From UHGV virus genome UHGV-0124463: a DNA stretch of 44,748 bases. One strand, 5' to 3'. The notes under the pieces were generated by a model. That model was not told the DNA's origin, ran no database searches, and was given only the letters and a program-made list of their open reading frames with translations. Shown one piece after another: positions 15,896-35,504 of this stretch. The translations under genes were made by a program, and so were the position numbers. The DNA is from a virus. Each line of letters begins with the position of its first letter. Within the stretch, counting starts at the first letter, position 1.

Positions 15896-16425
15896 AACCA
15901 AAAATTATTATACTCGCCCTTGGGCCTCCCTCACCCTCAGCGCGAGCAATTGCCCCCATAGGGGGTGCCTAGCGCATAAACAGAGGGGGTGGGGCCACCT
16001 AGGGCGCACTAGTAGGCACCAGCGGGCCTCAGCGGGCCTGTGCTGCGTTCTAGTGCTATCGCTAGTGCTACCCTATGGCTATCCCTGTGCGTTCACTAGG
16101 GCGCTTCCTGTGCGCTCTCTGTGGGCCATAGGGGTGCGCTCTGCCTTACCTATTTTGTGCGCCTCAGTGTGGCACCTAGGGGCGTGTCCATTGCTTATTT
16201 TGCGCGTCCATAGTGGGCCCGCCTAGTGCGCTGTAGTGCGTCACGGTGCTATCCCTAGTATGCACTAGGCGATCCACTGGCTATCCCTAGTGCTTTACAT
16301 TGTGCCGATTATATGCTACGCTGCGCGCTCCCCCCTAGGGCGCACATCCTCACCCAACACTATCCCGGCGCTATCTCTTTGCTATCCTTTTGCTCTTACT
16401 TTCATTCGAAAGCTGTCATGAAATG
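15896..16425. repeat. repeat-rich non-coding region (short direct repeats and recurring 10-mer CTAGGGCGCA); probable genome-terminus region
   Basis: No credible ORF; CTAGGGCGCA at 15999 and 16335 (9/10 at 16096; also 17330), tandem cagcgggcct x2, repeated ctagtgcta and ctatccct. Confidence 0.5.
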
Positions 16426-16442
16426 ATGTTACAGGAGTAGGA
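16426..16442 (+). promoter_or_regulatory. copy of 17-bp motif ATGTTACAGGAGTAGGA (candidate phage RNAP promoter)
   Basis: Exact match to copies at 4834..4851 and 37985..38002; in non-coding DNA. Confidence 0.4.
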
Positions 16443-16633
16443 GGGTTTTAGGGCACTATATACACACTACTTACTACTACTCACTAGTAGTCACTAGTAT
16501 CCCCTAGTAATGCCCTGTATGACTGACCGTAGGGAGGGAAGCATTACCTAGAATCTTGTAACCTCCGCTCCTATCCCTCCGGGATATCGTCGCTATGGTT
16601 ACGCTACTAATCACTATGTAAGGAGATATTGTT

Positions 16634-17020
16634 GTGGCTAGAACATTTAAGATTGTGGTTGATAAGGAAGGTTATCCAGTGATTAATGGTGCTGGGCCTG
16701 AGTATGTGAATAAGCGAGGTAAGAGAGACTATAAGACTGTGGCGCTGCATAGGGCCGTGGTTATGGATGCTCTGGGAATCACTAGCTACGGTTCTGGCTA
16801 TCACGTACATCACTGTGACAGTAACCGCCTTAACTGTGACTTCAATAACCTGATACTGGTTAGCGCTGACACTCACCGGGCCATACACTTAGCACAGATT
16901 CAGGAAGGGAGATGCTTCACAAAGGATGAGTTATTGGCTAGTCCTGAGTACGATACTAACTGGCGAGAGTTCTACGTGACTTATGGGGACTACAATAGTT
17001 TACTGCACGCAGACCTTTAG
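16634..17020 (+). CDS. HNH endonuclease
   Basis: GTG start after RBS TAAGGAGA; motif HVHHCDSNRLNCDFNNLILVSADTHRAIH. Confidence 0.6.
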   Translation: MARTFKIVVDKEGYPVINGAGPEYVNKRGKRDYKTVALHRAVVMDALGITSYGSGYHVHHCDSNRLNCDFNNLILVSADTHRAIHLAQIQEGRCFTKDELLASPEYDTNWREFYVTYGDYNSLLHADL

Positions 17021-17070
17021 GGGTCTGCTTACTCTTTTTGCTCCCAGTGATAAAAAGTTTAAAAAAGTAC

Positions 17071-17100
17071 TTGCTTCTTTTGGTTCAATAGGGCTATAGT
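17071..17100 (+). promoter_or_regulatory. sigma70-like promoter candidate (TTGCTT-N18-TATAGT) with A-rich upstream element
   Basis: Read directly; preceded by gataaaaagtttaaaaaag. Confidence 0.35.
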
Positions 17101-17202
17101 TCAATCACCGGGAGGCACTGAGGCGCTAACCGGGGCAGAGTCGGGAGATTCAGCCGGATTAAAGCTAGATAGTGTGAAGGGTTAGACACTCAATAAAAAG
17201 AG

Positions 17203-17231
17203 TTGACACCGCGAAGAACATAAGCTAGATT
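17203..17231 (+). promoter_or_regulatory. sigma70-like promoter candidate (TTGACA-N17-TAGATT)
   Basis: Consensus -35 hexamer and 17-bp spacer read directly. Confidence 0.45.
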
Positions 17232-17271
17232 GAATCCCGAAGTAAGCAGTAAGGCAGTAAGAAATAAACGC

Positions 17272-17300
17272 TTGACAAGTTCTGATTCACTGAGTAACTT
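17272..17300 (+). promoter_or_regulatory. sigma70-like promoter candidate (TTGACA-N17-TAACTT)
   Basis: Consensus -35 hexamer and 17-bp spacer read directly. Confidence 0.4.
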
Positions 17301-17650
17301 AGATAGCGAACAAGGCAAGGATAACCACTCTAGGGCGCAAGGATGTGTGTCCCGTCGGATTAGGCTAGACGTTAAAAATGACCTCTTAAAGGTTTAGTAG
17401 TAAGCTGGTTTGCGGGGAGGCCCAGTACCTTGACTGGTACGTTGACGACCCACCCCTAGACAATCAGTTAAAGAGTAAACGTGCCGGACGTTATCACCGG
17501 GGTTCTGAGGCAAACCATACTGCCGAGGCGAGAGCAGCTCGCTCCTCTGAATCGAGGGAACAAGGCGCGGAGTGTATCCCGCAAAGAGCATATAACATAG
17601 CGCAGCAGTAACAAGGTTGCGCTAGATTATGTTCTCTGAGAGGTAAGAGT

Positions 17651-17848
17651 ATGCGCAAATCAAAGCGTTTAGCATTACGGCGGAATATGCAATTATCACT
17701 GAATCCCACCGACGACGTGCCGCTTACTGTGAAGCCTAGCAAACAAGGGTTGAGCAGTGAGCACAGGGTGAGGGGAAAGCAAAAACAAAAGGGCAGTAGC
17801 AGGCAGCCATCTGGATGGCCTACTGTTAACTCCCAATTTGGTCGATAA
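17651..17848 (+). CDS. small basic hypothetical protein (first early ORF)
   Basis: 65 aa, Lys/Arg-rich, strong RBS GAGAGGTAAGAG before ATG. Confidence 0.4.
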   Translation: MRKSKRLALRRNMQLSLNPTDDVPLTVKPSKQGLSSEHRVRGKQKQKGSSRQPSGWPTVNSQFGR

Positions 17849-17919
17849 TTACAGCCTATAGCATCCTACGGGGTGCTATGTGAAGTAATTACCTAAACAA
17901 CCAATCAAAGAGGTGCATT

Positions 17920-18519
17920 ATGACCCATTCAACTGGTAAAGTATTCAAGCTCACCGCTGCGGGCAGCATTCGTAAAGCGCTGGGCGACGTAGTGGAAGCA
18001 AAGCGCAACATCACTATTAGCGCGCTCTTCCACGGCCTGATTAGCAGCAACGTTTCCTGGGCTATGGATATGCAGCGCAGCGATGCCGCGGACTTTGATA
18101 TGGTGCTGCGTACGCTGCTGCCAATCAAGTTCAACAAAGAGTCCGGCAAGTACGAATTCAACGCTAAGAAGTGCTATGCGTCGGCTGAAAAGCTGGGTAT
18201 CGAACTGGACAGTATGCGTCTGGATTACAAGCAAGCTGACAAGCAAGGCCGCGAAGTAATCGTAGCCAGCTTCTATAGCTCCTGTATGGCCCTGTACGCT
18301 GCCGAAGCGGAGCGGGTGAAGAATGACGCGCTGGATGCCGATGCAGTGCGCTTGCAAGCGCTGGGGCGCGTTAAAAACGCCATCAAGAAGGCTAAAGAGA
18401 CTGGTGTAAGCGATGCTGACCTCGTGTCTATGCTGGTATCGCAAGGCGTGGACGTACGCGCTGTACTGGACGCCGTGAATCTTGGCATTATCACCGATTG
18501 GAGACAACTCTATGGTTAA
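17920..18519 (+). CDS. hypothetical early protein
   Basis: 199-aa ORF with balanced composition, RBS-like AAAGAGG upstream. Confidence 0.5.
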   Translation: MTHSTGKVFKLTAAGSIRKALGDVVEAKRNITISALFHGLISSNVSWAMDMQRSDAADFDMVLRTLLPIKFNKESGKYEFNAKKCYASAEKLGIELDSMRLDYKQADKQGREVIVASFYSSCMALYAAEAERVKNDALDADAVRLQALGRVKNAIKKAKETGVSDADLVSMLVSQGVDVRAVLDAVNLGIITDWRQLYG

Positions 18520-18775
18520 CGTATTCAACATCATTGTGACCAGCGCTATGCTGGTGCTGGGCAACGACATAAACAACCCAATCCCATACTGCACTGTGCA
18601 GTTGCAGCAACCGGCAACGCAGGAGCCGCAGCCGCGCCCTGAGTATGACCTCTTTGAAGACCCCGAGGGTGGTTGCAAAGAGCTGGGCGCACGTATCCTT
18701 GCGGCGGTGCAGGGGCAGTACCCGGACGCTGCGGTAACGCTCACGGTGGATGGTAAGAGCAATAACGAAATTTGA
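18512..18775 (+). CDS. hypothetical early protein (acidic, N-terminal hydrophobic segment)
   Basis: ATG at 18512 overlapping upstream stop; track ORF 18482..18775. Confidence 0.4.
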   Translation: MVNVFNIIVTSAMLVLGNDINNPIPYCTVQLQQPATQEPQPRPEYDLFEDPEGGCKELGARILAAVQGQYPDAAVTLTVDGKSNNEI

Positions 18776-18784
18776 GGTGGGGGC

Positions 18785-18964
18785 ATGCACGGAAAGAATC
18801 CTGAAACGCTGCTGATGCGTAAGCAGCAACCAACAATCGACAGGCTGGCGCGGGAGTACAACGCGAAGGCAGCGCTGCGCCAGCACTATGAGAAACAAGC
18901 AAAGCGCCTGGGTATGACCCTGCGCGGCTACTGCTTCCGGTTTAATGTGCGGGGTGTAGTATGA
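18785..18964 (+). CDS. hypothetical small early protein (59 aa)
   Basis: ATG preceded by GAGGTGGGGG; stop overlaps next ATG (ATGA); below the ORF-track length cutoff. Confidence 0.3.
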   Translation: MHGKNPETLLMRKQQPTIDRLAREYNAKAALRQHYEKQAKRLGMTLRGYCFRFNVRGVV

Positions 18965-19179
18965 GCAAGCAGGACATTTATGACGTATATAAGCGCCCTA
19001 ATGGGTTTCTTTACCGGGTACCTCTATGTAGTCCACTGCACGCCCTCGCAGAATTCTATGCAGAGGAGACTAGACTGTGGTTGCCGTCCAGTCACACAGT
19101 TGGCGGGGTGGTAATGCTAAGTTGTAGCACCCTTGTGGCCCGCAACGTGGTATTCAAGGATAGCGCATGCTCACAGTAG
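18961..19179 (+). CDS. hypothetical early protein
   Basis: 72-aa ORF in tight tandem with neighbours. Confidence 0.4.
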   Translation: MSKQDIYDVYKRPNGFLYRVPLCSPLHALAEFYAEETRLWLPSSHTVGGVVMLSCSTLVARNVVFKDSACSQ

Positions 19180-19511
19180 ACGAAACAGCGCTGCTGTGCT
19201 GGCGTCTGCTGGAAACGCAGGGCAAGTGCGGTTGCACTTGGGAAACATTCAAAGAGGTTCCTAATGAACTCAAGCAAATCGTGCCAGTTGAGCGTCGATT
19301 ACTCCGAGTTAGAAAAGAGGATATTGGCACTGTTCTCACAACCTATCGAGAGTACACTGAGTCTGCCGCGCGGAAGCTGCAAGAGCACATTGCATTCGAT
19401 GTGGTTGCAGCACTACGGCGGAATGGATACCGCGGAGCTTTTAAGCAATTTAGAGCCGCAGTCCGCGCCTATTATAAGCAGCAACAACTCTCCGCGTGGT
19501 ACGCACGCTGA
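19167..19511 (+). CDS. hypothetical early protein
   Basis: 114-aa ORF with protein-like balanced composition; overlaps upstream stop by 13 nt. Confidence 0.4.
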   Translation: MLTVDETALLCWRLLETQGKCGCTWETFKEVPNELKQIVPVERRLLRVRKEDIGTVLTTYREYTESAARKLQEHIAFDVVAALRRNGYRGAFKQFRAAVRAYYKQQQLSAWYAR

Positions 19512-19542
19512 ACTCTTAGTGCATGACGAAGTTCTATTAACT

Positions 19543-21234
19543 CGGGAGCAAATGAAAATGCAAGAAACTAACACAGCACCTATCGAATGGAAAGTAGTGT
19601 TACCGGAAGGTGCAAACGCACTGCCGATTAAAGAATCAATGTATTCCAGCGGTGATTACTGGACCCCGTTCCAGGACTTGCAAATGCAAGGGGAGGACCA
19701 TCCCCACACTGAGGGTCCGCTGCAGGTGCTTATGGGTCTCCGCACTGTCAGTGCGCACACTCCAGGCTTAGAGGTGACTATAGGCGGGGCACTGCACCCA
19801 GAGTATCGCGAATCAACGATGACGCTCGGCCCGTTGCAAAAGGTGGACCTGTACCGGTCCGGAACTTTCTGCGAACTCTTTGAACCGGTGCGAATCACCA
19901 TAGACAGCAAGTTCTGGGAACGCCGCCGCGACTTCTATGAGGGCGAGGATGTAGTGGTTGAGCGCGTAGTTGCTTGCGTCGAAGAATTCACAGGTTACAA
20001 GGTGCACAAGCAGGCCGTGCAGTTATTTGAGCGCATCATGCTTGCACCAGAAGAGCAGCAGCGCCGCTTATACACTGGCTACGATTACGGCCGCCACACC
20101 CGCGATGGCAACTTAGCTGCGCTGCTCATGAAGTTGCACGGCTTCGTAGTGTCTAGATTCGCCGTGCCTTTGGGCTTTGGTTTCCGCAACGGCGAACCTA
20201 TCGTGATGCTGGGGCAGCCGCGGATGCACAAGGACTTCGCAGCAGTTACTGAGTACCGCTGCGTAGAGATGCGCGTAGGTAAGTGGCTCGCTAACTACTA
20301 CGGAAATGGTGTGGACTTCCGCGATGCTATCGAAGACCTCAAGGCTATGAACGTAGACCCTACAACGTACCTGTGCAAGACCGAGCAGGAATGGTACGAC
20401 GCCTACGAGAATGGCCCGGGTAGCTGCATGAGCGGGTACTCATTTGAGCATAGCTCTGTGCGGACGTACGCTACCACCAGCCACGGGTTGCCGGATAATG
20501 GGCTGCGCCTGTTCATCCAGTACACCGGGGAGCTGTTCGGCGACGATTTCGAAGTGCAGGCACGGGCAATCGTTAACACAGAAACTAACGAGTACGTCCG
20601 CGCTTACGGCAACGCTGCGGATGCAATCCTGCGGGGGCATGGGTACACCAAAAACATTGAATGTCTCGAAGGGGTAATGCTGGCGCGAATACCGCACCCA
20701 ACATACAACGGCGCAGTGCTGATGCCATACCTAGATAGCAGCCAGTGCGGCGTAGATGAGTATGGGGATGATGCCTTTGTAATCCGTGATGCTTATGAGT
20801 ACGAGGCACAAGACTCAGAAGGATACATCTACGTAGGCACTGAGTCTGCTCGGTGCTGCTGCTGTGAATGTCGCCACTCTGTAGATGACATGCAGGAGAC
20901 CGCAGATGGTGATATGGTCTGCGACGGCTGCGTAGAAGAAGGGGATTTTGTGTACGTAGTTGGGCGTGATGGTCTGCATAATCGCTGGAGCTGCACCTGG
21001 TCTGATTACCACGACGCCTATGTATACGACGAGGACATAGAGCGCTGCGAAGTAGAGGGTGTAGTGCACGACCAAGAGGAACTGGTGTTTGCACAGGACC
21101 GGCAAGTGCTTATTGAGCACGCAGAAGAACACCCAGTGCACGGGTTAATTCTCACTGAGCATGCAGCTGATTGCTTGGGAGAGAAGTACCTGGGCAACGA
21201 TGAAGATGAAGAAGAAGCAGAGGAGGCAGCTTAA
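19543..21234 (+). CDS. large acidic early protein with cysteine cluster, unknown function
   Basis: Start chosen at ATG 19543 (RBS GGGAG); the track ORF extends to 19264 but that extension is Ser/Pro-rich and overlaps 19167..19511; CCCCECRH...CDGC cluster; acidic tail DEDEEEAEEAA. Confidence 0.5.
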   Translation, partial: REQMKMQETNTAPIEWKVVLPEGANALPIKESMYSSGDYWTPFQDLQMQGEDHPHTEGPLQVLMGLRTVSAHTPGLEVTIGGALHPEYRESTMTLGPLQKVDLYRSGTFCELFEPVRITIDSKFWERRRDFYEGEDVVVERVVACVEEFTGYKVHKQAVQLFERIMLAPEEQQRRLYTGYDYGRHTRDGNLAALLMKLHGFVVSRFAVPLGFGFRNGEPIVMLGQPRMHKDFAAVTEYRCVEMRVGKWLANYYGNGVDFRDAIEDLKAMNVDPTTYLCKTEQEWYDAYENGPGSCMSGYSFEHSSVRTYATTSHGLPDNGLRLFIQYTGELFGDDFEVQARAIVNTETNEYVRAYGNAADAILRGHGYTKNIECLEGVMLARIPHPTYNGAVLMPYLDSSQCGVDEYGDDAFVIRDAYEYEAQDSEGYIYVGTESARCCCCECRHSVDDMQETADGDMVCDGCVEEGDFVYVVGRDGLHNRWSCTWSDYHDAYVYDEDIERCEVEGVVHDQEELVFAQDRQVLIEHAEEHPVHGLILTEHAADCLGEKYLGNDEDEEEAEEAA

Positions 21235-22289
21235 TGTTCTTGAATCCGCACGGGATTGATATGCAGCTGCTCTTGCAGATACTGCAAACGCACCGGCCTA
21301 GCTGGGGTAGCACTAAGTGGTTCGAGCCGCTGCTTATGCAGTCGCTACAGGCACTTGGTAGCGGTGTGCACTACGTAAAGGATAAGCACGGGAACTACTT
21401 CGTGCTGGTGGGAGACTCAGAGCAAAGCGACGTAGCGTTTACATCGCACCTCGATACGGTGGCCCGTCCTGGTAGTGCAGCCCCGGACGTTGGTTGCACT
21501 AACAAGGGCATACTGTTCGTAAAGAATCCGCAACAAGCTGACTGCTTGGGGGCGGACTGCGGTGCTGGTATCTACCTGATGCTGGAGATGCTGCGGCGGG
21601 GTGTGCACGGACGCTACTGCTTCTTCGTGGATGAAGAGGTGGGCTGCGAAGGCAGCGCTGCATCGGTCAAGGATGACACTGGATTTTGGACTGGTGTCAA
21701 GGCGATGATTAGCTTTGACCGCCGCGGAGATGGTATCATTACGCACCAGCGGTACATGCGCTGCTGCTCTGATACCTTTGCCAAGACTCTGGCAGAGCGC
21801 CTAGGACGCACGGAGCAGCACTTACAAAAGGGTGTGTATACTGACTCAGCCGAGTTCGTCGGCATCATCCCTGAGTGCACCAACGTCGGTGTAGGGTACA
21901 TGCACGAGCACACTCCGGATGAGGTACTGGACCTGAACATCCTGGGGCAAGTGCTTGAGCGGGTACTGCAAGATGGTACGTTCTCGCACCTTCCGATTGA
22001 GCGGGACCCGAAGGTAGTAGAGACGGACCAATGGCTCTCTACATCTACTCTGAGTTTCCGGCAGCCGTGGGACATGCCCCCGGACGAGGACCCGCAATTG
22101 CTGGCTGCGTTCCGTGTAGTGTCACAGCTTTCTAAACAGCAACTGATTAGCTGGGTGCAGGAGAATCCAGAGAAGGCGGCGGAGTACATCATGGTGTTCT
22201 CCGATTATGGCTTCAAAGAGGAGCTGATTGAACTAGGCACCCGAGTCGTAGAAGACTGGGGCGGATACGATAATATTGTGGAGGGTTGA
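21234..22289 (+). CDS. metallopeptidase candidate (M20/M28-like zinc hydrolase motif set)
   Basis: Ordered motifs HLDTV, GADCGAG, DEEVGCEGS, and a later HEH; 351 aa. Confidence 0.4.
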   Translation: MFLNPHGIDMQLLLQILQTHRPSWGSTKWFEPLLMQSLQALGSGVHYVKDKHGNYFVLVGDSEQSDVAFTSHLDTVARPGSAAPDVGCTNKGILFVKNPQQADCLGADCGAGIYLMLEMLRRGVHGRYCFFVDEEVGCEGSAASVKDDTGFWTGVKAMISFDRRGDGIITHQRYMRCCSDTFAKTLAERLGRTEQHLQKGVYTDSAEFVGIIPECTNVGVGYMHEHTPDEVLDLNILGQVLERVLQDGTFSHLPIERDPKVVETDQWLSTSTLSFRQPWDMPPDEDPQLLAAFRVVSQLSKQQLISWVQENPEKAAEYIMVFSDYGFKEELIELGTRVVEDWGGYDNIVEG

Positions 22290-22738
22290 TTATGTCTAAA
22301 CTTTTTCAAGTGGGTGATAAGGTTCAGCGCATCAATAAGATTGAAGGTAAGACCATGCGCGGCGAGATAGTCACTAAGGGGCCTGGCCTCTGTATAGACA
22401 TCAAGCTAACCGAAGGAGCAGGGATTCGTTATGCCGGGGATATCTATGGCGGCTCTGCCGACTTCTGGCAGCTAATCGAGGAGGCGGACGAGCTGCCACC
22501 GGTTCCGTCTAGTGTAGCATATTTAAACACTAAACGAGACCCAGGAAACGACCAGCGGCTGGTATTAGAAAAGGACAGCGAGACTAACGAAGGACTACTA
22601 TACATCGGAATAGTGCCTAGAAAAGGCAGCACCCGGGCAGAGCGAGAGATTGGTATTAATATGAGCCCCGATTCAGCCCTGCAGTTGGCACATGACATTC
22701 GTCGAATGGCTATGAAAGTTAAGCGAGAGATTCAGTAA
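22286..22738 (+). CDS. hypothetical protein
   Basis: 150-aa ORF overlapping neighbours by 4 nt and 1 nt. Confidence 0.45.
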   Translation: MIMSKLFQVGDKVQRINKIEGKTMRGEIVTKGPGLCIDIKLTEGAGIRYAGDIYGGSADFWQLIEEADELPPVPSSVAYLNTKRDPGNDQRLVLEKDSETNEGLLYIGIVPRKGSTRAEREIGINMSPDSALQLAHDIRRMAMKVKREIQ

Positions 22739-23529
22739 TGGACCAGCCCTGGCTTAGAGCGTGCAAGCGCCTGGCCGTGGGGCAGAGGGCACGCTTTCGG
22801 TGCTGCGGCAGGGACGCCGCCGGGGTGCTCTACAATAACCCTGATGCCTGGGAATACTATTGCCACCGCTGTAAACAGGTGGGCAAGGAGCACAAGCAGT
22901 ACCAGCGCATACAGTTACAGGAAGAGCCGAGGGTGCAGCCCTCTGCACCTGCAGATGCAATTTGCATTAGCCAAGCGCCTGCGGAAACGCAGAGTTTTCT
23001 TTACGGATTCCTGACCACAAAGGGAATCATGCCTGAAATGGTGGAGGATGCAGAATGGAGCAAAGAGAAACAGCGGATAATATTCCGTGTCGGAAGCGCT
23101 GCTCTGGGCCGTGCAGTGCATGCCCGACAGCAACCGAAGTGGGTAATGTACGGCCAGCCAATGCCGTTCGCTGCCGCGGCACCTGCCGTAGCGCCGGATG
23201 TAGCTGCGGCCGCACCTCTAAAGGTCGTGCTCACCGAGGACTATCTATCAGCGATCAAATATCAGCACGCGATTACGAACTACTCTGCAATGAACGTGCA
23301 GGCTATAGCTATGCTGGGTACTCGCTTGCCCGTGCAGTTAAGGGCGTGGCTGATACAGAACAAACCGACAGTGATACTGTCCCTGGATAATGACCAAGCG
23401 GGACACTCCGGCGCGGCCATGATACGGCGCGCGCTACGTCCCTTTATGTCGTGCCACGAAATCTACTACGACGGGGACCCAAAAGAGGCAACAATACAGG
23501 AGTTATTAGATGGTATTAGGCGCGTGTAA
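22738..23529 (+). CDS. DNA primase (zinc-ribbon + TOPRIM)
   Basis: N-terminal CCGRD...YYCHRC zinc-binding motif; TOPRIM-like TEDYLSAIKYQH and LSLDNDQAG. Confidence 0.65.
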   Translation: MDQPWLRACKRLAVGQRARFRCCGRDAAGVLYNNPDAWEYYCHRCKQVGKEHKQYQRIQLQEEPRVQPSAPADAICISQAPAETQSFLYGFLTTKGIMPEMVEDAEWSKEKQRIIFRVGSAALGRAVHARQQPKWVMYGQPMPFAAAAPAVAPDVAAAAPLKVVLTEDYLSAIKYQHAITNYSAMNVQAIAMLGTRLPVQLRAWLIQNKPTVILSLDNDQAGHSGAAMIRRALRPFMSCHEIYYDGDPKEATIQELLDGIRRV

Positions 23530-23947
23530 AGAGCACAAACAGAAAGGCGGACCAAAGGGTTACGGAAATACCCCGTTCAAAGGGCGGAAGATACCCCTGC
23601 ATAGAGAGGTGTATTGCTCGGCGAACGATATATCTCCGGAGAGCATAGTGGGGCTAGTTGTGCGCCATAAGTGTGACAACCCGAGATGTATTAATCCCGA
23701 GCATTTAGAATTAGGTACGGTCAAGGATAACGTCCATGACTGTATTGCCCGGGGTAGGGCTAGACGTGGAGTTTCTAAAGGGGAGCAGAATGGGTACTCC
23801 AAGCTAACAGCGCAGCAGGTGGACTATATCAGGAAGACCTACAGGCGGTACAGCAGGGAACACGGCACACCGGCCATAGCTGCTAGCCTTGGTGTAAGTG
23901 TGTCAGCAGTGCACGATGTATTGAAAGCTAAAACTTGGAGGCTCTAA
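23510..23947 (+). CDS. HNH homing endonuclease (paralog 1 of 3)
   Basis: Motif LVVRHKCDNPRCINPEHLELGTVKDNVHD; overlaps primase 3' end. Confidence 0.7.
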   Translation: MVLGACKEHKQKGGPKGYGNTPFKGRKIPLHREVYCSANDISPESIVGLVVRHKCDNPRCINPEHLELGTVKDNVHDCIARGRARRGVSKGEQNGYSKLTAQQVDYIRKTYRRYSREHGTPAIAASLGVSVSAVHDVLKAKTWRL

Positions 23948-25280: not shown

Positions 25281-25436
25281 ATGCTTAAACCGTCAGACAT
25301 TAACTACCTCGATGAAGAGGTAATCAAGGCGTACGCTGCATCTGCAGGTACTTTCCGTAAACAGTTTGCACTGGACAGCAGCCAGCTGATTGTGCATCTG
25401 GCGATTAATAAGGCTCGGAGGGCTAATTGGAAATGA
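25281..25436 (+). CDS. hypothetical small protein (51 aa)
   Basis: ATG preceded by AGGAGG; stop overlaps the HNH ATG. Confidence 0.3.
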   Translation: MLKPSDINYLDEEVIKAYAASAGTFRKQFALDSSQLIVHLAINKARRANWK

Positions 25437-25882
25437 CAGGTTGTATTGACCACGGACAGAAGGGAAGCACTTGCCGAGGAAAGGGCGCTGGGTATGGCCG
25501 CTCCAGATTTGACGGGAAGACAACTGGCAGCCACCGCAAAGCATACTGTGTAGCTCACAACTTGAAGCTGAGCGATATCGCGGGACTTGTAGTCCGGCAT
25601 TCGTGCGACAATCCTCGGTGCATAAATCCGGAGCACCTGCTACTAGGGACTTCTAGCGATAATATGCAGGACCGAAATAAAGGTGCGCGTAATTTGCTGG
25701 GCAGCCGCAACCCTGCTGCCAGACTTACCCCAGAAGACGTGCACAGCATACGAGAAGCATACGCTGGCGGTGAGACCCAGGTATCTATAGCGAGACGCTT
25801 CGGGACAAGTCAAGGATACATATCTAATATCATAAAGGGGAGGGTATGGAATGAGCAGAAGCATCCTGATAACGGATTATGA
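25433..25882 (+). CDS. HNH homing endonuclease (paralog 2 of 3)
   Basis: Motif LVVRHSCDNPRCINPEHLLLGTSSDNMQD; track ORF 25427..25882, ATG at 25433 after GGAGGG. Confidence 0.7.
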   Translation: MTGCIDHGQKGSTCRGKGAGYGRSRFDGKTTGSHRKAYCVAHNLKLSDIAGLVVRHSCDNPRCINPEHLLLGTSSDNMQDRNKGARNLLGSRNPAARLTPEDVHSIREAYAGGETQVSIARRFGTSQGYISNIIKGRVWNEQKHPDNGL

Positions 25883-28229
25883 GACGCAAAACCACCCATA
25901 TTACGGTAGTGTTGCTTCCCCGTACTGTCCGGATAATTACATCGTAGAATCAGCGTGGCGTATTGACCGCACGCACGATGACGGTACGGTAGAAGTAGGC
26001 CCCGTAGAGAGTGTACGGTATAACAGTCGCGCGCACTTTGAAGCGGCACCTGTATCAGAATGGCTCCCAATACCAGCTGACTGTTGGCTGATTGTGGCTC
26101 ACAACGCCGCATATGAGATTAGCTGGTTCCTAACCTTTGCGCGCGCCGAGTTTGAGGCCTTCCTAAAGCGGGGAGGTCGCGTATTCTGTACGATGCATTC
26201 TGAGTACATCGCCTCGGACTTTCAGAGCATGTATCCGTCGCTGGACGAGACGGCTCCTAAGTACGGTGGTACGCACAAAGTAGACGGGGTTAAGATTCTA
26301 TGGGAGCAGGGTGTGTTAACCTCCCAGATTGACCCGATGCTGCTGCATGACTACCTGGTTAACGGGGACATCCCGAACACGGCTCTGTGCTTCTACGGTC
26401 AGTGCGCTACGTTCGCCCAGCGCAATCAGATGCAGTACGTGTGGGAGCGCATGGATGCTCTGCTAGCCTGGGCGTACTGCGAATGGTTCGGCCTGTTCGT
26501 TAATATGCCAATTGCGCGCAAGAACCAAGAGGAGCAGGAGCAGCGCATCCGCGAGATTAAGCAGGAGCTGCAGCAGTACATCCCTAAGGACTTGCCGGAG
26601 GCACTGGATTTCAACTTCGGTTCGGACTTTCATATGTCTGCACTGGTGTACGGTGGGCCTATCAAGTACCGCAAGAAGGTGCCCTATGACCCTCCTCAGT
26701 ACGTCAAGTACGATGCCTACTTAGCAGACGTCAATGGAACGTTGCAGTATATTGATGTGTCCGACTGGCAGCCAGAATGGACGTACCCGCGGACACTGTA
26801 TAAGTCCGGCAAGAACAAGGGGCTTCCCAAAGTGTTCCGCCTTGATACCGAGGAGGAGAAACTTAAGTGGGAGGATGACCTTTACTTCTGCCCGGGCCTA
26901 GTGAACATCCAGGAGCTGCCGGAAGTTATCCGGGAGAAGTACACAGAGCGCGGAGAGTTCCGGCAGGCGCGGAACCTGCAGGATGACACTCCTGTGTATA
27001 GTACCAGCACTGACGCAATGGAGGCACTGGCTCGCCAAGGTTTCGAGTTCTGTAAGTTGGTGAACGAGCTGGCGGCGCTGGAGAAGGACACTGGAACTTA
27101 CTACTTGCGTGAAGTTCTGGACGCAGAGGGTAAAGTCAAAGAGCGGAAGGGCATGTTACAGTACGTAATCCCTGAGCGTCCTGATGGTTCTGGCATCATA
27201 CACCACCGACTGAATACCTGCGCCACCGTAACCGGGCGCTTGAGTAGCTCTAACCCGAACCTGCAGAACCTACCCCGCCCGGATGAGGATGGGGATGGGG
27301 TAGCTAAATCCAAGGTGAAGCAGGTATTCACCAGCCGATTCGGGGATAACGGACGCATCACTGAGGTTGACTACTCGGCGCTGGAAGTGGTTATGTCCTG
27401 CGTGCATACGGGGGACACCAAACTACTGGGGCTGCTGCAGGGCGGCACGGATATGCACTGTTACCGCCTAGCTTTCCGCGAGGAACTGCCGTATGAAGAA
27501 GTGTATGAGCGCTGCCACAACAAGAAGCACGAGCTGCATCCGCTTTGGAAGGCAATGCGTACAGGTATTAAGGCTCCTAGCTTCGCAGCCCAGTATGGCG
27601 CTACGGCTAAGGGGATTGCGTTTGCTACTGGATGTACGGTGGAATTCGCACAGGCTTTCTTGGACAACGAGGCTGCGCTGTTCCCGCAAACAATTGGCTT
27701 CCGCGCTGTTATCAAGGAAGAAGTAGAGCGCACCGGGGCAGCCGGGCGCATGTACCGCGAGCAGGCTGACGATGGCAGCTACCGAGTCTACCGCATCGGG
27801 ACGTGGACTAGCCCAGCAGGTGCCCGCTATAGCTTCCGCCAGAAGGAGCAGTGGAAAGAGGTTGTGCCTGGGCAGCGTAAGCAGAAGGTAATGGACTACA
27901 AGGAAACAGAGATGGCTAACTACTGGTGCCAGGGGGAAGCATTCTTCCTGATGGCGGTAGCCGCCGGTATGGTTCTGCGTGCACTCCTGGCCCGTGACTG
28001 GTTCGACAATCAGGTGTGCCTGATTACGAACGTGCACGATGCGTTGTATCTGGACAGCGCCAACCCGGAGGTTGGACGTGAGGCGAGCCTGCTGGTTAAG
28101 CAGTGCATGGAGGATGCACCTAAGCGTATTCACCAGCTCTGGCCTAACTACGGCATCATTGGTGAGGTCCCGTTCCCGGCGGAATGTGAGATGGGGGTAA
28201 GCATGTATGCCAAAGAGAAAATTGAGTGA
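25851..28229 (+). CDS. DNA polymerase, family A, with 3'-5' exonuclease domain
   Basis: Exo motif ITDYET; pol motifs DYSALEVV, RTGIKAPSFAAQYG, NVHDALYLD; 792 aa. Confidence 0.85.
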   Translation: MSRSILITDYETQNHPYYGSVASPYCPDNYIVESAWRIDRTHDDGTVEVGPVESVRYNSRAHFEAAPVSEWLPIPADCWLIVAHNAAYEISWFLTFARAEFEAFLKRGGRVFCTMHSEYIASDFQSMYPSLDETAPKYGGTHKVDGVKILWEQGVLTSQIDPMLLHDYLVNGDIPNTALCFYGQCATFAQRNQMQYVWERMDALLAWAYCEWFGLFVNMPIARKNQEEQEQRIREIKQELQQYIPKDLPEALDFNFGSDFHMSALVYGGPIKYRKKVPYDPPQYVKYDAYLADVNGTLQYIDVSDWQPEWTYPRTLYKSGKNKGLPKVFRLDTEEEKLKWEDDLYFCPGLVNIQELPEVIREKYTERGEFRQARNLQDDTPVYSTSTDAMEALARQGFEFCKLVNELAALEKDTGTYYLREVLDAEGKVKERKGMLQYVIPERPDGSGIIHHRLNTCATVTGRLSSSNPNLQNLPRPDEDGDGVAKSKVKQVFTSRFGDNGRITEVDYSALEVVMSCVHTGDTKLLGLLQGGTDMHCYRLAFREELPYEEVYERCHNKKHELHPLWKAMRTGIKAPSFAAQYGATAKGIAFATGCTVEFAQAFLDNEAALFPQTIGFRAVIKEEVERTGAAGRMYREQADDGSYRVYRIGTWTSPAGARYSFRQKEQWKEVVPGQRKQKVMDYKETEMANYWCQGEAFFLMAVAAGMVLRALLARDWFDNQVCLITNVHDALYLDSANPEVGREASLLVKQCMEDAPKRIHQLWPNYGIIGEVPFPAECEMGVSMYAKEKIE

Positions 28230-28686
28230 GTGTATTAATCATCCCGGAGGTATGTTCCCTTCTGGGTACGGTGCTAAATGGTGGCTAGGAGCCACCAGAA
28301 AGGCCCACCGGGTGGCGTATTGCCAGGCGCACGGTCTGCTGCCGGAGGATATAGAGGGTATCATAATCCGACACAAGTGCGACAATAGGGCATGCGTAAA
28401 CCCAGACCACCTGGAGCCGGGAAGCCATGCCGACAATATGCGGGACATGGTTGAGCGAGGACGCTCGGCGATGGGCGTTCGTAACAGCAAGGCCAAACTA
28501 ACGCCTGAGCAAGTAGCCGAAATACGCCGAACGTTTGTACCCCAATCCACGGAGTACGGCTCAGTGGCTCTAGGCCGGTTGTATGGGGTGAGTAACAGCA
28601 CAATCAACCGCATAGTGCGTGGACTCTATTGGGTAGCAGAGGCTGAGATGGGTACGAGTATGTACAGTAAGGAGAAGGTAGAATGA
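28207..28686 (+). CDS. HNH homing endonuclease (paralog 3 of 3), ending in a polymerase-tail-like peptide
   Basis: Motif IIIRHKCDNRACVNPDHLEPGSHADNMRD; last 16 aa AEAEMGTSMYSKEKVE mirror the polymerase C-terminus AECEMGVSMYAKEKIE. Confidence 0.7.
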   Translation: MPKRKLSECINHPGGMFPSGYGAKWWLGATRKAHRVAYCQAHGLLPEDIEGIIIRHKCDNRACVNPDHLEPGSHADNMRDMVERGRSAMGVRNSKAKLTPEQVAEIRRTFVPQSTEYGSVALGRLYGVSNSTINRIVRGLYWVAEAEMGTSMYSKEKVE

Positions 28687-34004: not shown

Positions 34005-34420
34005 CGCGCCGTATAACACGGGGACAGGTCAGGGCCGTAACATTGAAACTGCTAAAAGAGCAGGATGGGTTGTGCTTAATCTGCGGTAAGCCCATAGAGT
34101 TAACGGCTAAAAGCACTTCCGGGGACGGTCCGGCACTTGACCATTCACACCGTACTGGGCGCATTCGCGGGGTGCTGCACCGCTCATGTAACGGGGGTAT
34201 TGGCCGAGCAGAGTCTGTGATAGGTCGGTGGGTTACAGGGTCCATGCAGGATGAGGTTGCTATTGTAGATGACATGCAGCGAATGGTAGACTATCTGCGC
34301 AAGCCTGAGACTGACTTGATTTATTATACACACAAATCCCCAGAAGAATTGGCGCAGGCACAGAAGCTCAAGGCCCGCAAAGCCAGAGCACGACGCAAAG
34401 CACGGGAGACTATTAAATGA
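33998..34420 (+). CDS. endonuclease VII-like Holliday junction resolvase
   Basis: CLICGKP...LDHSHRTGRIRGVLHRSCNGGIG matches the T4 endonuclease VII zinc/His-Cys motif pattern. Confidence 0.65.
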   Translation: MVARRITRGQVRAVTLKLLKEQDGLCLICGKPIELTAKSTSGDGPALDHSHRTGRIRGVLHRSCNGGIGRAESVIGRWVTGSMQDEVAIVDDMQRMVDYLRKPETDLIYYTHKSPEELAQAQKLKARKARARRKARETIK

Positions 34421-34875
34421 GTAAGTTCAAAGTTGGTGATGTAGTGGTACGTAAGCCCGAGTACCGCAATGAGAACTGGCGCAATCGGTTTAAAGAGCTT
34501 CCAGAAGGTGCCCCGCACGTGGTGGCTGCTGTCCGTTATAATGATATTATTGAGTTGGATCATTTACCTTGTGGTTGGGACTCAGACTTATTTGATTTGG
34601 TAAGTGCCCCCGGCATACCGGAAGAGCTGCCCGCACCGAAAGCGTCCGACGCAGTGAACTCCCCTAAGCACTACCAGTTCTTCCCGGACCTGGAGGCAAT
34701 CGAGGTGATTGCACGCAGTATGACCAAGGAACAATTCTATGGCTATTGTCTCGGGAACAGATTAAAATATAGGCTGCGCGCTGGGAACAAGGATAAGCTG
34801 GAGCAGGACATTGCTAAGTCTGATAAATACTTGGAGTTGTATGAGCAGCACAATGGAAAATGTATTGACGCCTAG
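34417..34875 (+). CDS. hypothetical protein
   Basis: 152-aa ORF, ATGA-type overlap with upstream gene. Confidence 0.45.
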   Translation: MSKFKVGDVVVRKPEYRNENWRNRFKELPEGAPHVVAAVRYNDIIELDHLPCGWDSDLFDLVSAPGIPEELPAPKASDAVNSPKHYQFFPDLEAIEVIARSMTKEQFYGYCLGNRLKYRLRAGNKDKLEQDIAKSDKYLELYEQHNGKCIDA

Positions 34876-35006
34876 CGCGTGGTGTCACGGGATGTGGCAG
34901 AAAGCAGTAGAGCGGGGCGATGCTACCGCCGCTAAAGACTACCTGGAGATGTACAATCTCTGGGTTAGCAGGAGCCTATAAGGACATAACCGAGGAGATT
35001 ACATTG

Positions 35007-35504
35007 ATGCCAAGTAAGCAGTCTCTATCAGAAGCTTTTAAGTATGACCCTTTAACTGGAACGTTAACTCGACGTGTAAAAAGAGGCAGTTCTAAACTAG
35101 ATGCTGCTAGAGAGCTTACTAATTCAGGATACCTTCGGACATGGTTCAAAGGGAAGCGATACTTTACACATCGATTAGTATACATCATGCATTGCGGAGA
35201 AATCCCAGATGGCATGGAAGTGGACCACATTAACCAGCTTCGTACTGATAATCGAATAGAGAATTTACGGTTGGCGAGCAGGGCGGATAACAGCAGAAAC
35301 CGCACTCGACACAGTAATAATATTAGCGGAACTACTGGGGTACATTGGTCTAAAGATAAAGGGAAGTGGCGCGCCGGGATTAGGGTTAACGGCGAGTATA
35401 AAAGCCTCGGATGCTTCACCGACTTAGAGGACGCAGTAGCTGCTCGTAAGGCGGCAGAAAATACATACGGATTCCACGAGAACCACGGTAGCGCAAAGAG
35501 ATAA
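35007..35504 (+). CDS. HNH homing endonuclease with AP2-like domain (paralog of 15434..15895)
   Basis: EVDHINQLRTDNRIENLRLASRADN plus GVHWSKDKGKWRAGIRVNGEY; ATG 35007 after GAGGAG (track ORF starts 34920). Confidence 0.7.
   Translation: MPSKQSLSEAFKYDPLTGTLTRRVKRGSSKLDAARELTNSGYLRTWFKGKRYFTHRLVYIMHCGEIPDGMEVDHINQLRTDNRIENLRLASRADNSRNRTRHSNNISGTTGVHWSKDKGKWRAGIRVNGEYKSLGCFTDLEDAVAARKAAENTYGFHENHGSAKR

Follow-up and report, generated by a model that had tools for sequence, protein, structure and literature searches.

An orphan protein family of Drulisvirus and other mobile elements, with an enzyme-like core, a predicted zinc ribbon and an acidic C-terminal domain, encoded beside a metallopeptidase

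The viral genome UHGV-0124463, a stretch of 44,748 nucleotides (nt) that we refer to as a whole as the window, carries a gene for a large acidic protein (hereafter the target) immediately followed by a gene for a metallopeptidase. The window is a circularly permuted complete genome of ~44.7 kb that belongs to the genus Drulisvirus (KP34-like Klebsiella podophages; Autographiviridae, Slopekvirinae), with its genes on the + strand. A megablast search with positions 19000–22500 matched 248 phage records, nearly all of them Klebsiella Drulisvirus with 80–96% identity. The counterparts of the target gene are gene 10 of KP34, gp11 of Kp2 and g12 of fHe-Kpn01, and everywhere the annotation is “hypothetical protein.” The gene itself is already present in hundreds of deposited genomes and its existence is not new. 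What we have not found described in the searchable literature is the definition of the family, its near-invariant residues, the nature of its Cys cluster, the localization of its acidity, its Ala-Ala end and its pairing with the peptidase, this last being the strongest functional clue available. The features of the locus are listed in Table 1.

Table 1. Position and supporting evidence of the target gene, the parts of its product and the adjoining genes in the window.
Feature	Coordinates	Strand	Evidence or remarks
Upstream gene, 114 amino acids (aa)	19167..19511	+	PHROG 6167 match, E 6e-55
Shine-Dalgarno sequence GGGAG (AGGAG in most relatives)	19544..19548	+	9 nt 5' of ATG 19558; conserved across Drulisvirus loci
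Target coding sequence, 558 aa plus TAA stop	19558..21234	+	Invariant ATG, third-position excess, PHROG 6980, length of Kp2 gp11
N-terminal region, aa 1–230	19558..20247	+	Lineage-specific, largely helical; last ~35 residues open the conserved region
Alpha/beta core, aa 231–425, family-defining	20248..20832	+	289-cluster matches, invariant residues, predicted local distance difference test (pLDDT) 90–98
Ser289-Cys290-Met291 in Y-x-x-G-P-x-S-C-M	20422..20430	+	Invariance; candidate catalytic or ligand-binding center
Predicted Cys4 zinc ribbon, aa 433–458, C433-x2-C436...C455-x2-C458, includes CCCCEC	20854..20931	+	Family conservation
Acidic beta-hairpin repeats, aa 459–540	20932..21177	+	Short hairpins in model, pLDDT 95–98
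Acidic tail, aa 541–558, ...DEDEEEAEEAA	21178..21231	+	Terminal Ala-Ala is a family trait
Terminal peptide of the target protein, ...YLGNDEDEEEAEEAA			
GAGGAG in the tail, encoding Glu-Glu and serving as Shine-Dalgarno sequence of the peptidase gene	21220..21225	+	Junction sequence
MH-clan (M28/M20/M42-like) dinuclear metallo-exopeptidase, 351 aa	21234..22289	+	Pfam, PHROG, PDB profiles, metal ligands

A preliminary description of this DNA, made from its letters alone, had placed here an open reading frame (ORF) of ~563 aa at 19543–21234. The ORF is real, but its start had to be moved. The codon at 19543 is CGG, which is not a start codon, and the open frame spans 19264–21234. The ATG at 19558 was found to be invariant across ~60 Drulisvirus loci and is preceded by a Shine-Dalgarno sequence, whereas several Drulisvirus relatives have ATT, AAG, ACG or ACT in place of the ATG at 19552. 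We therefore take 19558 as the true start, a correction of 15 nt with regard to 19543 that yields a protein of 558 aa, i.e., identical in length to Kp2 gp11. Many public records of this gene (610–660 aa) begin at upstream ATGs and overlap the 114-aa gene out of frame. To count variable sites per codon position we used ~60 Drulisvirus genomes. Along 19558–21231, in the frame of the target, 474 third-position sites were variable vs. 239 first-position and 226 second-position sites. Between 19264 and 19511, 73 of the 83 third-position sites varied in the frame of the 114-aa gene (vs. 48 and 39 at the other two positions), a peak that corresponds to codon position 2 in the frame of the target. This indicates that 19264–19511 codes for the 114-aa gene and not for the target, and that the public versions of 655–656 aa bear a spurious 5' extension (19264–19557). 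The full-length match to the profile of PHROG 6980 (E = 0, 1245 bits) covers profile positions 95–654 of 655, the first 94 being the mis-annotated extension. An overlapping alternative frame, which had been considered as possibly the true gene, is ruled out by the same variability, which supports the frame of the target. That the target is a real, expressed phage gene is confirmed: its homologues can be traced down to ~20% identity, and in fHe-Kpn01 both the homologue Gp12 (556 aa) and the neighboring peptidase Gp13 have been found by liquid chromatography and tandem mass spectrometry (LC-MS/MS) in phage preparations (PMC7291057).

The 558-aa protein has an isoelectric point (pI) of 4.55, a net charge of -56 and 17 Cys. 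The compositional traits that had been pointed out before, i.e., CCCCECRH followed by CDGC, the general acidity and the DEDEEEAEEAA end, were all confirmed in the sequence, with CCCCEC located at aa 433–438 and CDGC at aa 455–458. An AlphaFold2 model built on an alignment of 68 homologues was confident (mean pLDDT 83.5, predicted template modeling score 0.72); the model obtained from the target sequence alone was unusable (pLDDT 32). The confident model predicts, in this order, a helical N-terminal region with a probably disordered segment at aa 65–104 (pLDDT <50), an alpha/beta core, the zinc ribbon, a run of beta-hairpins and a helical acidic tail. Distant homologues align only from aa ~195–235 onward.

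To establish the extent of the family, 1.84 billion cluster representatives were scanned exhaustively with phmmer; 289 clusters matched at E < 1e-3, mostly over aa ~231–475. Two alignments, with 68 and 71 sequences (138 in all) and ~20–25% identity to the query, were used to evaluate conservation. Ser289, Cys290 and Arg336 are invariant in both of them. Met291 is present in at least 90% of the 68-sequence set and is invariant in the 71-sequence set, while Tyr350, Tyr391 and Asp393 are invariant in the former and conserved in at least 90% of the latter. Tyr304, invariant among the 68 sequences, falls below 90% among the 71; Gly241 is below 90% in the first set and reaches at least 90% in the second; and Tyr283, Gly286, Pro390 and Gly422 are conserved in at least 90% of both. 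The resulting family motif is Y-x-x-G-P-x-S-C-M … A-R-A-x-V-N … Y-V-R-x-Y-G-D … M-P-Y-L-D-G. The core is also the most conserved part of the target among Drulisvirus genomes. Since polar residues are invariant or nearly so across 138 sequences at such low identity, the core can be considered enzyme-like, and it would be catalytic or ligand-binding, with Cys290 as its central residue. The Cys-His signature of cysteine peptidases is absent, as the invariant Cys290 is not accompanied by any invariant or near-invariant His in either alignment.

Neither Pfam, NCBIfam nor PADLOC contained a match to the target protein (PADLOC gave no family for either the target or the peptidase, even at E values as high as 1), and none of the 138 individual relatives had a Pfam match. 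The hidden Markov model consensus retrieved nothing significant, nor did the 68-sequence family profile, which was compared with PDB only, and the PDB sequence and profile searches gave weak zinc-finger matches only. The matches in PHROGs were to families of unknown function only, a word-indexed protein search with the alignment of distant homologues gave 11 hits, all of them hypothetical proteins, and the authors of the fHe-Kpn01 study obtained no hit when they ran HHpred on the homologue (PMC7291057). At the level of structure, Foldseek found nothing below E = 0.1 in PDB and only uncharacterized phage proteins in BFVD. As sequence, profile and fold searches match no known family, the core can be regarded as an orphan domain. 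The earlier judgement that no motif could be assigned thus holds against Pfam, NCBIfam, PADLOC and the PDB sequences, and homology to a characterized housekeeping phage protein, which would have spoken against an unstudied function, was not found in the remote-homology and Foldseek searches. The gene had also been described as a candidate for an unstudied function, and this agrees with the literature, in which we found no functional work on the target protein or KP34 gp10/gp11 and none behind the “DNA mimic” label that one homologue bears in GenBank. The single published toxicity screen left the target homologue out: the toxic Gp10 of fHe-Kpn01 is a 69-aa protein, different from the target, and Gp12 was excluded from that screen (PMC7291057).

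Downstream of the core, the Cys residues follow a pattern that is not random, since C433 and C436 (a CxxC) are conserved in at least 90% of the 68 diverse homologues and C455/C458 correspond to VCxxC in the consensus of the family. With two conserved CxxC knuckles and hairpins predicted with pLDDT >90, the cluster is, as judged from its conservation, a Cys4 zinc ribbon in which C433, C436, C455 and C458 are family-wide and the extra Cys are genus-specific. Conservation of the run of four Cys is limited to Drulisvirus, and the sixth Cys is variable. The cluster that the preliminary description called metal-binding-like can therefore be given a more precise, albeit predicted, identity. A second metal site may be formed by C479, H485, C497 and H504. 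The CxxC-18-CxxC spacing resembles that of the Cys4 fingers of zinc-ribbon, LIM and RBR domains, and there were weak, non-significant profile matches to the RBR domains of RNF31 and RNF144A, to the LIM domains of CRP and to the GATA finger; the Foldseek matches of the hairpin region were also LIM-like, none of them significant. However, unlike LIM or RBR fingers, the target has only one complete Cys4 site, and the later hairpins are mostly depleted in Cys and extremely acidic.

The acidity is concentrated in this part of the protein. The whole of the sequence C-terminal to the core (aa 426–558) has a net charge of -31 over 133 aa, i.e., -0.23 per residue, and the same distribution is found in the family, where the median net charge per residue is -0.03 for the N-terminal region, -0.04 for the core and -0.17 for the C-terminal ribbon and hairpin domain, the latter being negative in 95% of 123 members. 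Among Drulisvirus genomes, ~66% of codon positions 1 and 2 are variable along 20758–21057 (aa ~401–500, comprising the end of the core, the ribbon and the first hairpins). The corresponding figure for the core is ~25–35%, about half, indicating that the C-terminal domain evolves faster at the protein level.

The very end of the protein also behaves as a family trait. A C-terminal Ala was found in 64 of 128 representatives and Ala-Ala in 45 of them (35%). The terminal Ala is kept whether the next gene is joined by a TAATG overlap, an ATGA overlap or a spacing of ~10 nt or lies in divergent orientation, and it is encoded by differing Ala codons, a persistence that argues for selection on the protein. 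In Drulisvirus EEAA is nearly invariant, with Glu as the residue before the Ala pair, and many relatives end in LAA, IAA or VAA. In the window, the target is the only one of ~51 ORFs with an Ala-Ala end. Part of the tail must be under constraint at the nucleotide level in Drulisvirus, because two of its Glu codons double as the Shine-Dalgarno sequence of the peptidase gene. We considered whether EEAA could be a mere by-product of that sequence and found this to be only partly true, as the terminal Ala persists at other junctions, including that of a divergent locus.

The gene that follows encodes a protein with a match to Pfam Peptidase_M28 (22.8 bits vs. a cutoff of 21.3) and to PHROG 4191, “peptidase,” and among the PDB profiles it comes closest to Peptidase T, tripeptidase and TET aminopeptidase. 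H72, D74, D108, E134, E135, D162 and H226 are invariant in four homologues that are 33–56% identical to the peptidase of the window, so that the active site (HxD, D, EE, D, H) is intact as far as its predicted ligands indicate. It shares this dinuclear H-x-D, D, E-E, D, H site with Peptidase T and tripeptidase (M20B), TET (M42) and the M28 aminopeptidases. Unlike them, it has a conserved C-terminal helical extension and is encoded only beside members of the target family. The stop codon of the target and the start codon of the peptidase overlap as TAATG (21232–21236), and a TAATG or ATGA overlap is found in several lineages. Because of this overlap the two proteins are probably translationally coupled.

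The association between both genes was found over and over again. In the seven contexts seeded from distant target homologues a peptidase homologue was always located directly downstream (7/7). Conversely, we examined 20 diverged IMG/VR loci seeded with the peptidase. A full-length target homologue was located directly upstream in 15 and in divergent orientation in one; another had a partial match cut by the end of the contig, and the remaining three had too little upstream sequence. In the divergent locus (L082, 2286–5909), the only phage locus of this kind, the target homologue still ends in ...LEAA. Over every informative diverged locus examined, the adjacency of target and peptidase is essentially obligate. 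The pair was also found in bacterial genomes: one genome from each of 185,579 bacterial and archaeal species was scanned with a stringent motif, Y[ER]NGP[SNR]SCM, and the two loci detected were both Mesorhizobium T7-like prophages with the pair. Since this was a single motif, the result does not measure the rarity of the family in bacteria.

As for the phages that contain it, mainly podophages of the T7 supergroup, the pair opens the DNA-metabolism block in the early/middle region of their genomes. The Toprim/DnaB primase-helicase genes follow it closely in Drulisvirus and in diverged T7-like phages, and in one non-T7 phage it adjoins a Prim-Pol gene. In Kp2 the target is the 11th gene, and ~4.2 kb separate it from the end of the genome. 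Practically all Drulisvirus members have the target, which is a core gene, found in 232 Klebsiella phage records vs. 233 with the DNA polymerase. Other cultured phages with the family include Vibrio VP93-like, Pectobacterium phiM1-like, Shigella Buco, Cronobacter, Caulobacter and Pseudomonas putida phages, and many uncultured phages also carry the pair.

Among plasmids, 10 of 72,556 records matched and the pair was seen on three. In the conjugative plasmid pMC4 of Sphingopyxis indica (loci L093/L094, record 108525–118612) there is a co-directional series formed by DUF2958, a ParB-like protein (693 aa), the target homologue, the M28 peptidase, toprim, DUF2493, HEPN and Abi, and DUF736 genes lie past a heavy-metal resistance insertion. 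In pTEGF4 of Limnohabitans an orphan N6-methylase, an endonuclease and a relaxase are found within ~6 kb of the pair. Methylobacterium indicum pVL1_2 (L092, 4436–13834) has three target and two peptidase paralogues in tandem, in the order target, target, peptidase, ~0.7 kb, target, peptidase, downstream of genes for ATP-binding and radical SAM proteins; one of these target paralogues has a basic pI of 9.3 and no zinc ribbon. The plasmid copies retain SCM, most of them retain the zinc ribbon and the acidic C-terminus, and some have the terminal Ala. Plasmid leading regions are enriched in anti-defense genes, orphan methylases, toxin-antitoxin genes, genes for single-stranded DNA-binding proteins (SSBs) and genes of unknown function, and the early region of phages is analogous to them as the “first-in” position (PMC11541004). 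On pMC4 and pTEGF4 the pair shares the type of neighborhood (ParB-like, orphan methylases, ArdA/ArdC, SSB) found in the leading regions of conjugative plasmids, but it belongs to no described leading-region family and is rare on plasmids.

The reading that we prefer, with a rough probability of 0.35 for the composite of joint action, docking, core and tail roles, is that the target is the non-peptidase partner of a two-protein enzymatic module that acts during the entry phase. The target and the PepT/TET/M28-like peptidase would be made together and act as a cytoplasmic unit soon after the DNA has entered. The polyanionic C-terminal domain would dock onto a basic nucleic-acid-binding protein of the host or of the element, and the core, in which Cys290 would probably act as nucleophile or contact the ligand, would together with the peptidase modify or process the docked protein or a small molecule. 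The Ala-Ala end could give the peptidase a handle, or it could limit the lifetime of the protein in the manner of an ssrA-like degron. The module would act either on host defense or nucleoid factors or on the replication-priming apparatus. A more specific version, which we consider doubtful, is that the target and its obligate M28/PepT-like partner are a previously unrecognized two-enzyme system, deployed by many phages and some conjugative plasmids in the first minutes after entry, in which a cysteine enzyme whose fold is novel and which a DNA-mimicking zinc-ribbon domain delivers covalently modifies or processes a host nucleic-acid-binding protein, such as a defense or nucleoid factor. Several considerations weigh against the preferred reading. 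In the two alignments no invariant His or Glu completes a classical Cys-protease or GNAT active site. The adjacency proves a functional link and not a physical complex, and the target may be an enzyme, an adaptor or a substrate. A location of the plasmid pairs in a leading region is only suggestive. Finally, the status as core gene and the primase neighbors in several unrelated backbones fit replication at least as well as counter-defense.

One alternative is a role in replication. The module would be an accessory that aids priming or replisome assembly of the incoming element, with the acidic tail contacting the polymerase or the helicase. The acidic tails of T7 gp2.5 and gp4 make contacts of this kind, and both end in an aromatic residue. 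The core-gene status in Drulisvirus agrees with such a role, as do the position immediately upstream of the primase-helicase in Drulisvirus and the diverged T7-like phages, the Prim-Pol neighbor in the non-T7 phage, the toprim on pMC4 and the fact that 0 of 10 further ORFs scanned in the replication region matched an SSB family. The synteny with the primase is weak evidence though, because gene order is conserved in T7-like phages anyway; the target showed neither an OB fold nor a nucleotide-binding motif or a DNA-binding signature, a protein so acidic is unlikely to bind DNA itself, its tail ends in Ala-Ala and not in an aromatic residue, and the peptidase has no obvious role there. On balance we find this explanation unlikely. 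Still less probable is an Ocr- or ArdA-style DNA mimic, i.e., a protein or C-terminal domain that stoichiometrically blocks restriction or other DNA-binding defense proteins with no catalysis. The net charge of the last 133 residues and the similar acidity in 95% of the family would fit, one GenBank record labels a homologue “putative DNA mimic protein,” and the location in the early region of phages and beside ParB-like, orphan methylase and Abi/HEPN genes on plasmids also speaks for it. The likeness to T7 Ocr (gp0.3) and ArdA consists of the strong acidity, confined in the target to the C-terminal domain, and of coding in early-entering DNA. However, Ocr is an all-helical dimer of ~117 aa and the target is ~5 times longer, multi-domain and mixed alpha/beta, far exceeding known mimics at 558 aa, with no relation in sequence or fold and with an enzyme-like core, a zinc ribbon and a peptidase partner. 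No Ocr or ArdA Pfam match was found in the target or its 138 relatives. A mimic would not need an invariant Ser-Cys-Met/Arg/Tyr/Asp core, nor would a stoichiometric inhibitor need an obligate metallopeptidase partner, and a compendium of 268 anti-defense proteins has no peptidase-linked example. Besides, the target is a core gene rather than a variable accessory and, to judge from Kp2, is not the first to enter. The step from acidity to an anti-restriction factor in the manner of Ocr is not supported, with the acidity restricted to the C-terminal third of a protein that has an enzyme-like core and an obligate peptidase; the wider assignment to entry or host-takeover functions, made at the same time, is in line with the plasmid context.

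A different kind of enzyme would be a divergent acyl or aminoacyl transferase of GNAT fold that, together with a deacylase-type MH-clan hydrolase, carries out acylation and deacylation or the addition and trimming of peptides. ArgE, DapE and other hydrolases of the M20 type take part in acyl-protection pathways, and the order of predicted secondary structures along aa 200–390 can apparently be superimposed on the GNAT topology, beta1-alpha1-alpha2-beta2-4-alpha3-beta5-alpha4-beta6, in which case Gly241 would fall at a beta-strand/helix junction and Tyr283 where a helix ends ahead of the SCM loop. This resemblance, a weak fold match in the model, is best treated as a lead, and we give it a small chance, similar to that of the DNA mimic. 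Foldseek gave no significant match, hhalign of the family profile against RimI gave a non-significant probability of 0.2%, none of the 138 members has a Pfam hit to GNAT, the R/Q-x-x-G-x-G/A motif is absent, and the published HHpred search was negative. In comparison with the GNAT transferases RimI, FemA and ATE1, the target lacks motifs A and B and its invariant Ser-Cys-Met loop has no counterpart. The family-wide Ala-Ala end, often after L, I or V, recalls instead the ssrA tag and the ClpX C-motif-1 (…LAA-COOH), and the target might be a timed or decoy protease substrate, cleared by ClpXP/ClpAP or occupying them. The high frequency of the terminal Ala and Ala-Ala, the independence of the terminal Ala from junction type and Ala codon, the many LAA, IAA and VAA ends and the uniqueness of this end in the window point in that direction. 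Yet in Drulisvirus the residue before AA is Glu and not a hydrophobic one, so that the protein of the window ends in EEAA unlike an ssrA-type degron, the tail is partly constrained by the downstream ribosome-binding site, and the conserved core and the peptidase partner are left unexplained; we regard this as improbable. Lowest of all we place a virion-associated protein, packaged and injected to act before transcription. Gp12 and the peptidase Gp13 of fHe-Kpn01 were scored as particle-associated by LC-MS/MS (PMC7291057), and two GenBank records label homologues “putative structural protein.” But in the same preparation 29 of 56 proteins were scored as particle-associated, including the exonuclease, endonuclease VII and RNA polymerase, which makes carry-over of abundant non-structural proteins likely; the gene is located in the early/middle and not in the structural region, and there are homologues on plasmids, which have no virions. 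A pair of DNA hypermodification enzymes was also considered and is unlikely, as the DNA of fHe-Kpn01 is cut by at least eight restriction enzymes.

Some other features of the window deserve mention. The peptidase gene is followed by that of a 150-aa protein (22286–22738) of PHROG 4317, of unknown function, and the N-terminal 80 residues of a nucleotide-kinase-like protein encoded at 34417–34875 match the same PHROG 4317 region, which suggests that both proteins share a small domain. Four HNH homing-endonuclease genes (23510–23947, 25433–25882, 28207–28686 and 34920–35504) are dispersed over the replication/transcription block, where they flank the genes of the primase, helicase, DNA polymerase and RNA polymerase. 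For a podophage of 44.7 kb, this number is unusually high. An ORF of 310 aa (17929–18861, - strand), antisense to early genes, is very probably non-coding because all confirmed genes are on the + strand. The stretch of lowest GC content of the window (0.48–0.50) is found at 16000–18000; at 16–18 kb there are a terminator-like hairpin (17009–17028) and the best sigma-70-like promoter match (17203–17231), both consensus matches only, and this low-GC stretch probably marks the left end of the genome and the early promoter region.

Drulisviruses count among the Klebsiella phages that are isolated most frequently for therapy, and of their genes with no known function the target is one of the largest. 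What was a hypothetical protein is now a defined object of study, with named residues (C290, R336, Y350, Y391, D393, the zinc-ribbon Cys and the Ala-Ala end) and a named partner. Should the pair turn out to serve counter-defense or establishment, a mechanism that combines an enzyme with a peptidase would join a field in which small stoichiometric inhibitors prevail, and if the target proves to be a cysteine enzyme of novel fold it would represent a new biochemical route of host takeover or counter-defense. A role as replication factor, if confirmed, would close a gap in our understanding of how DNA synthesis begins in phiKMV-like phages.

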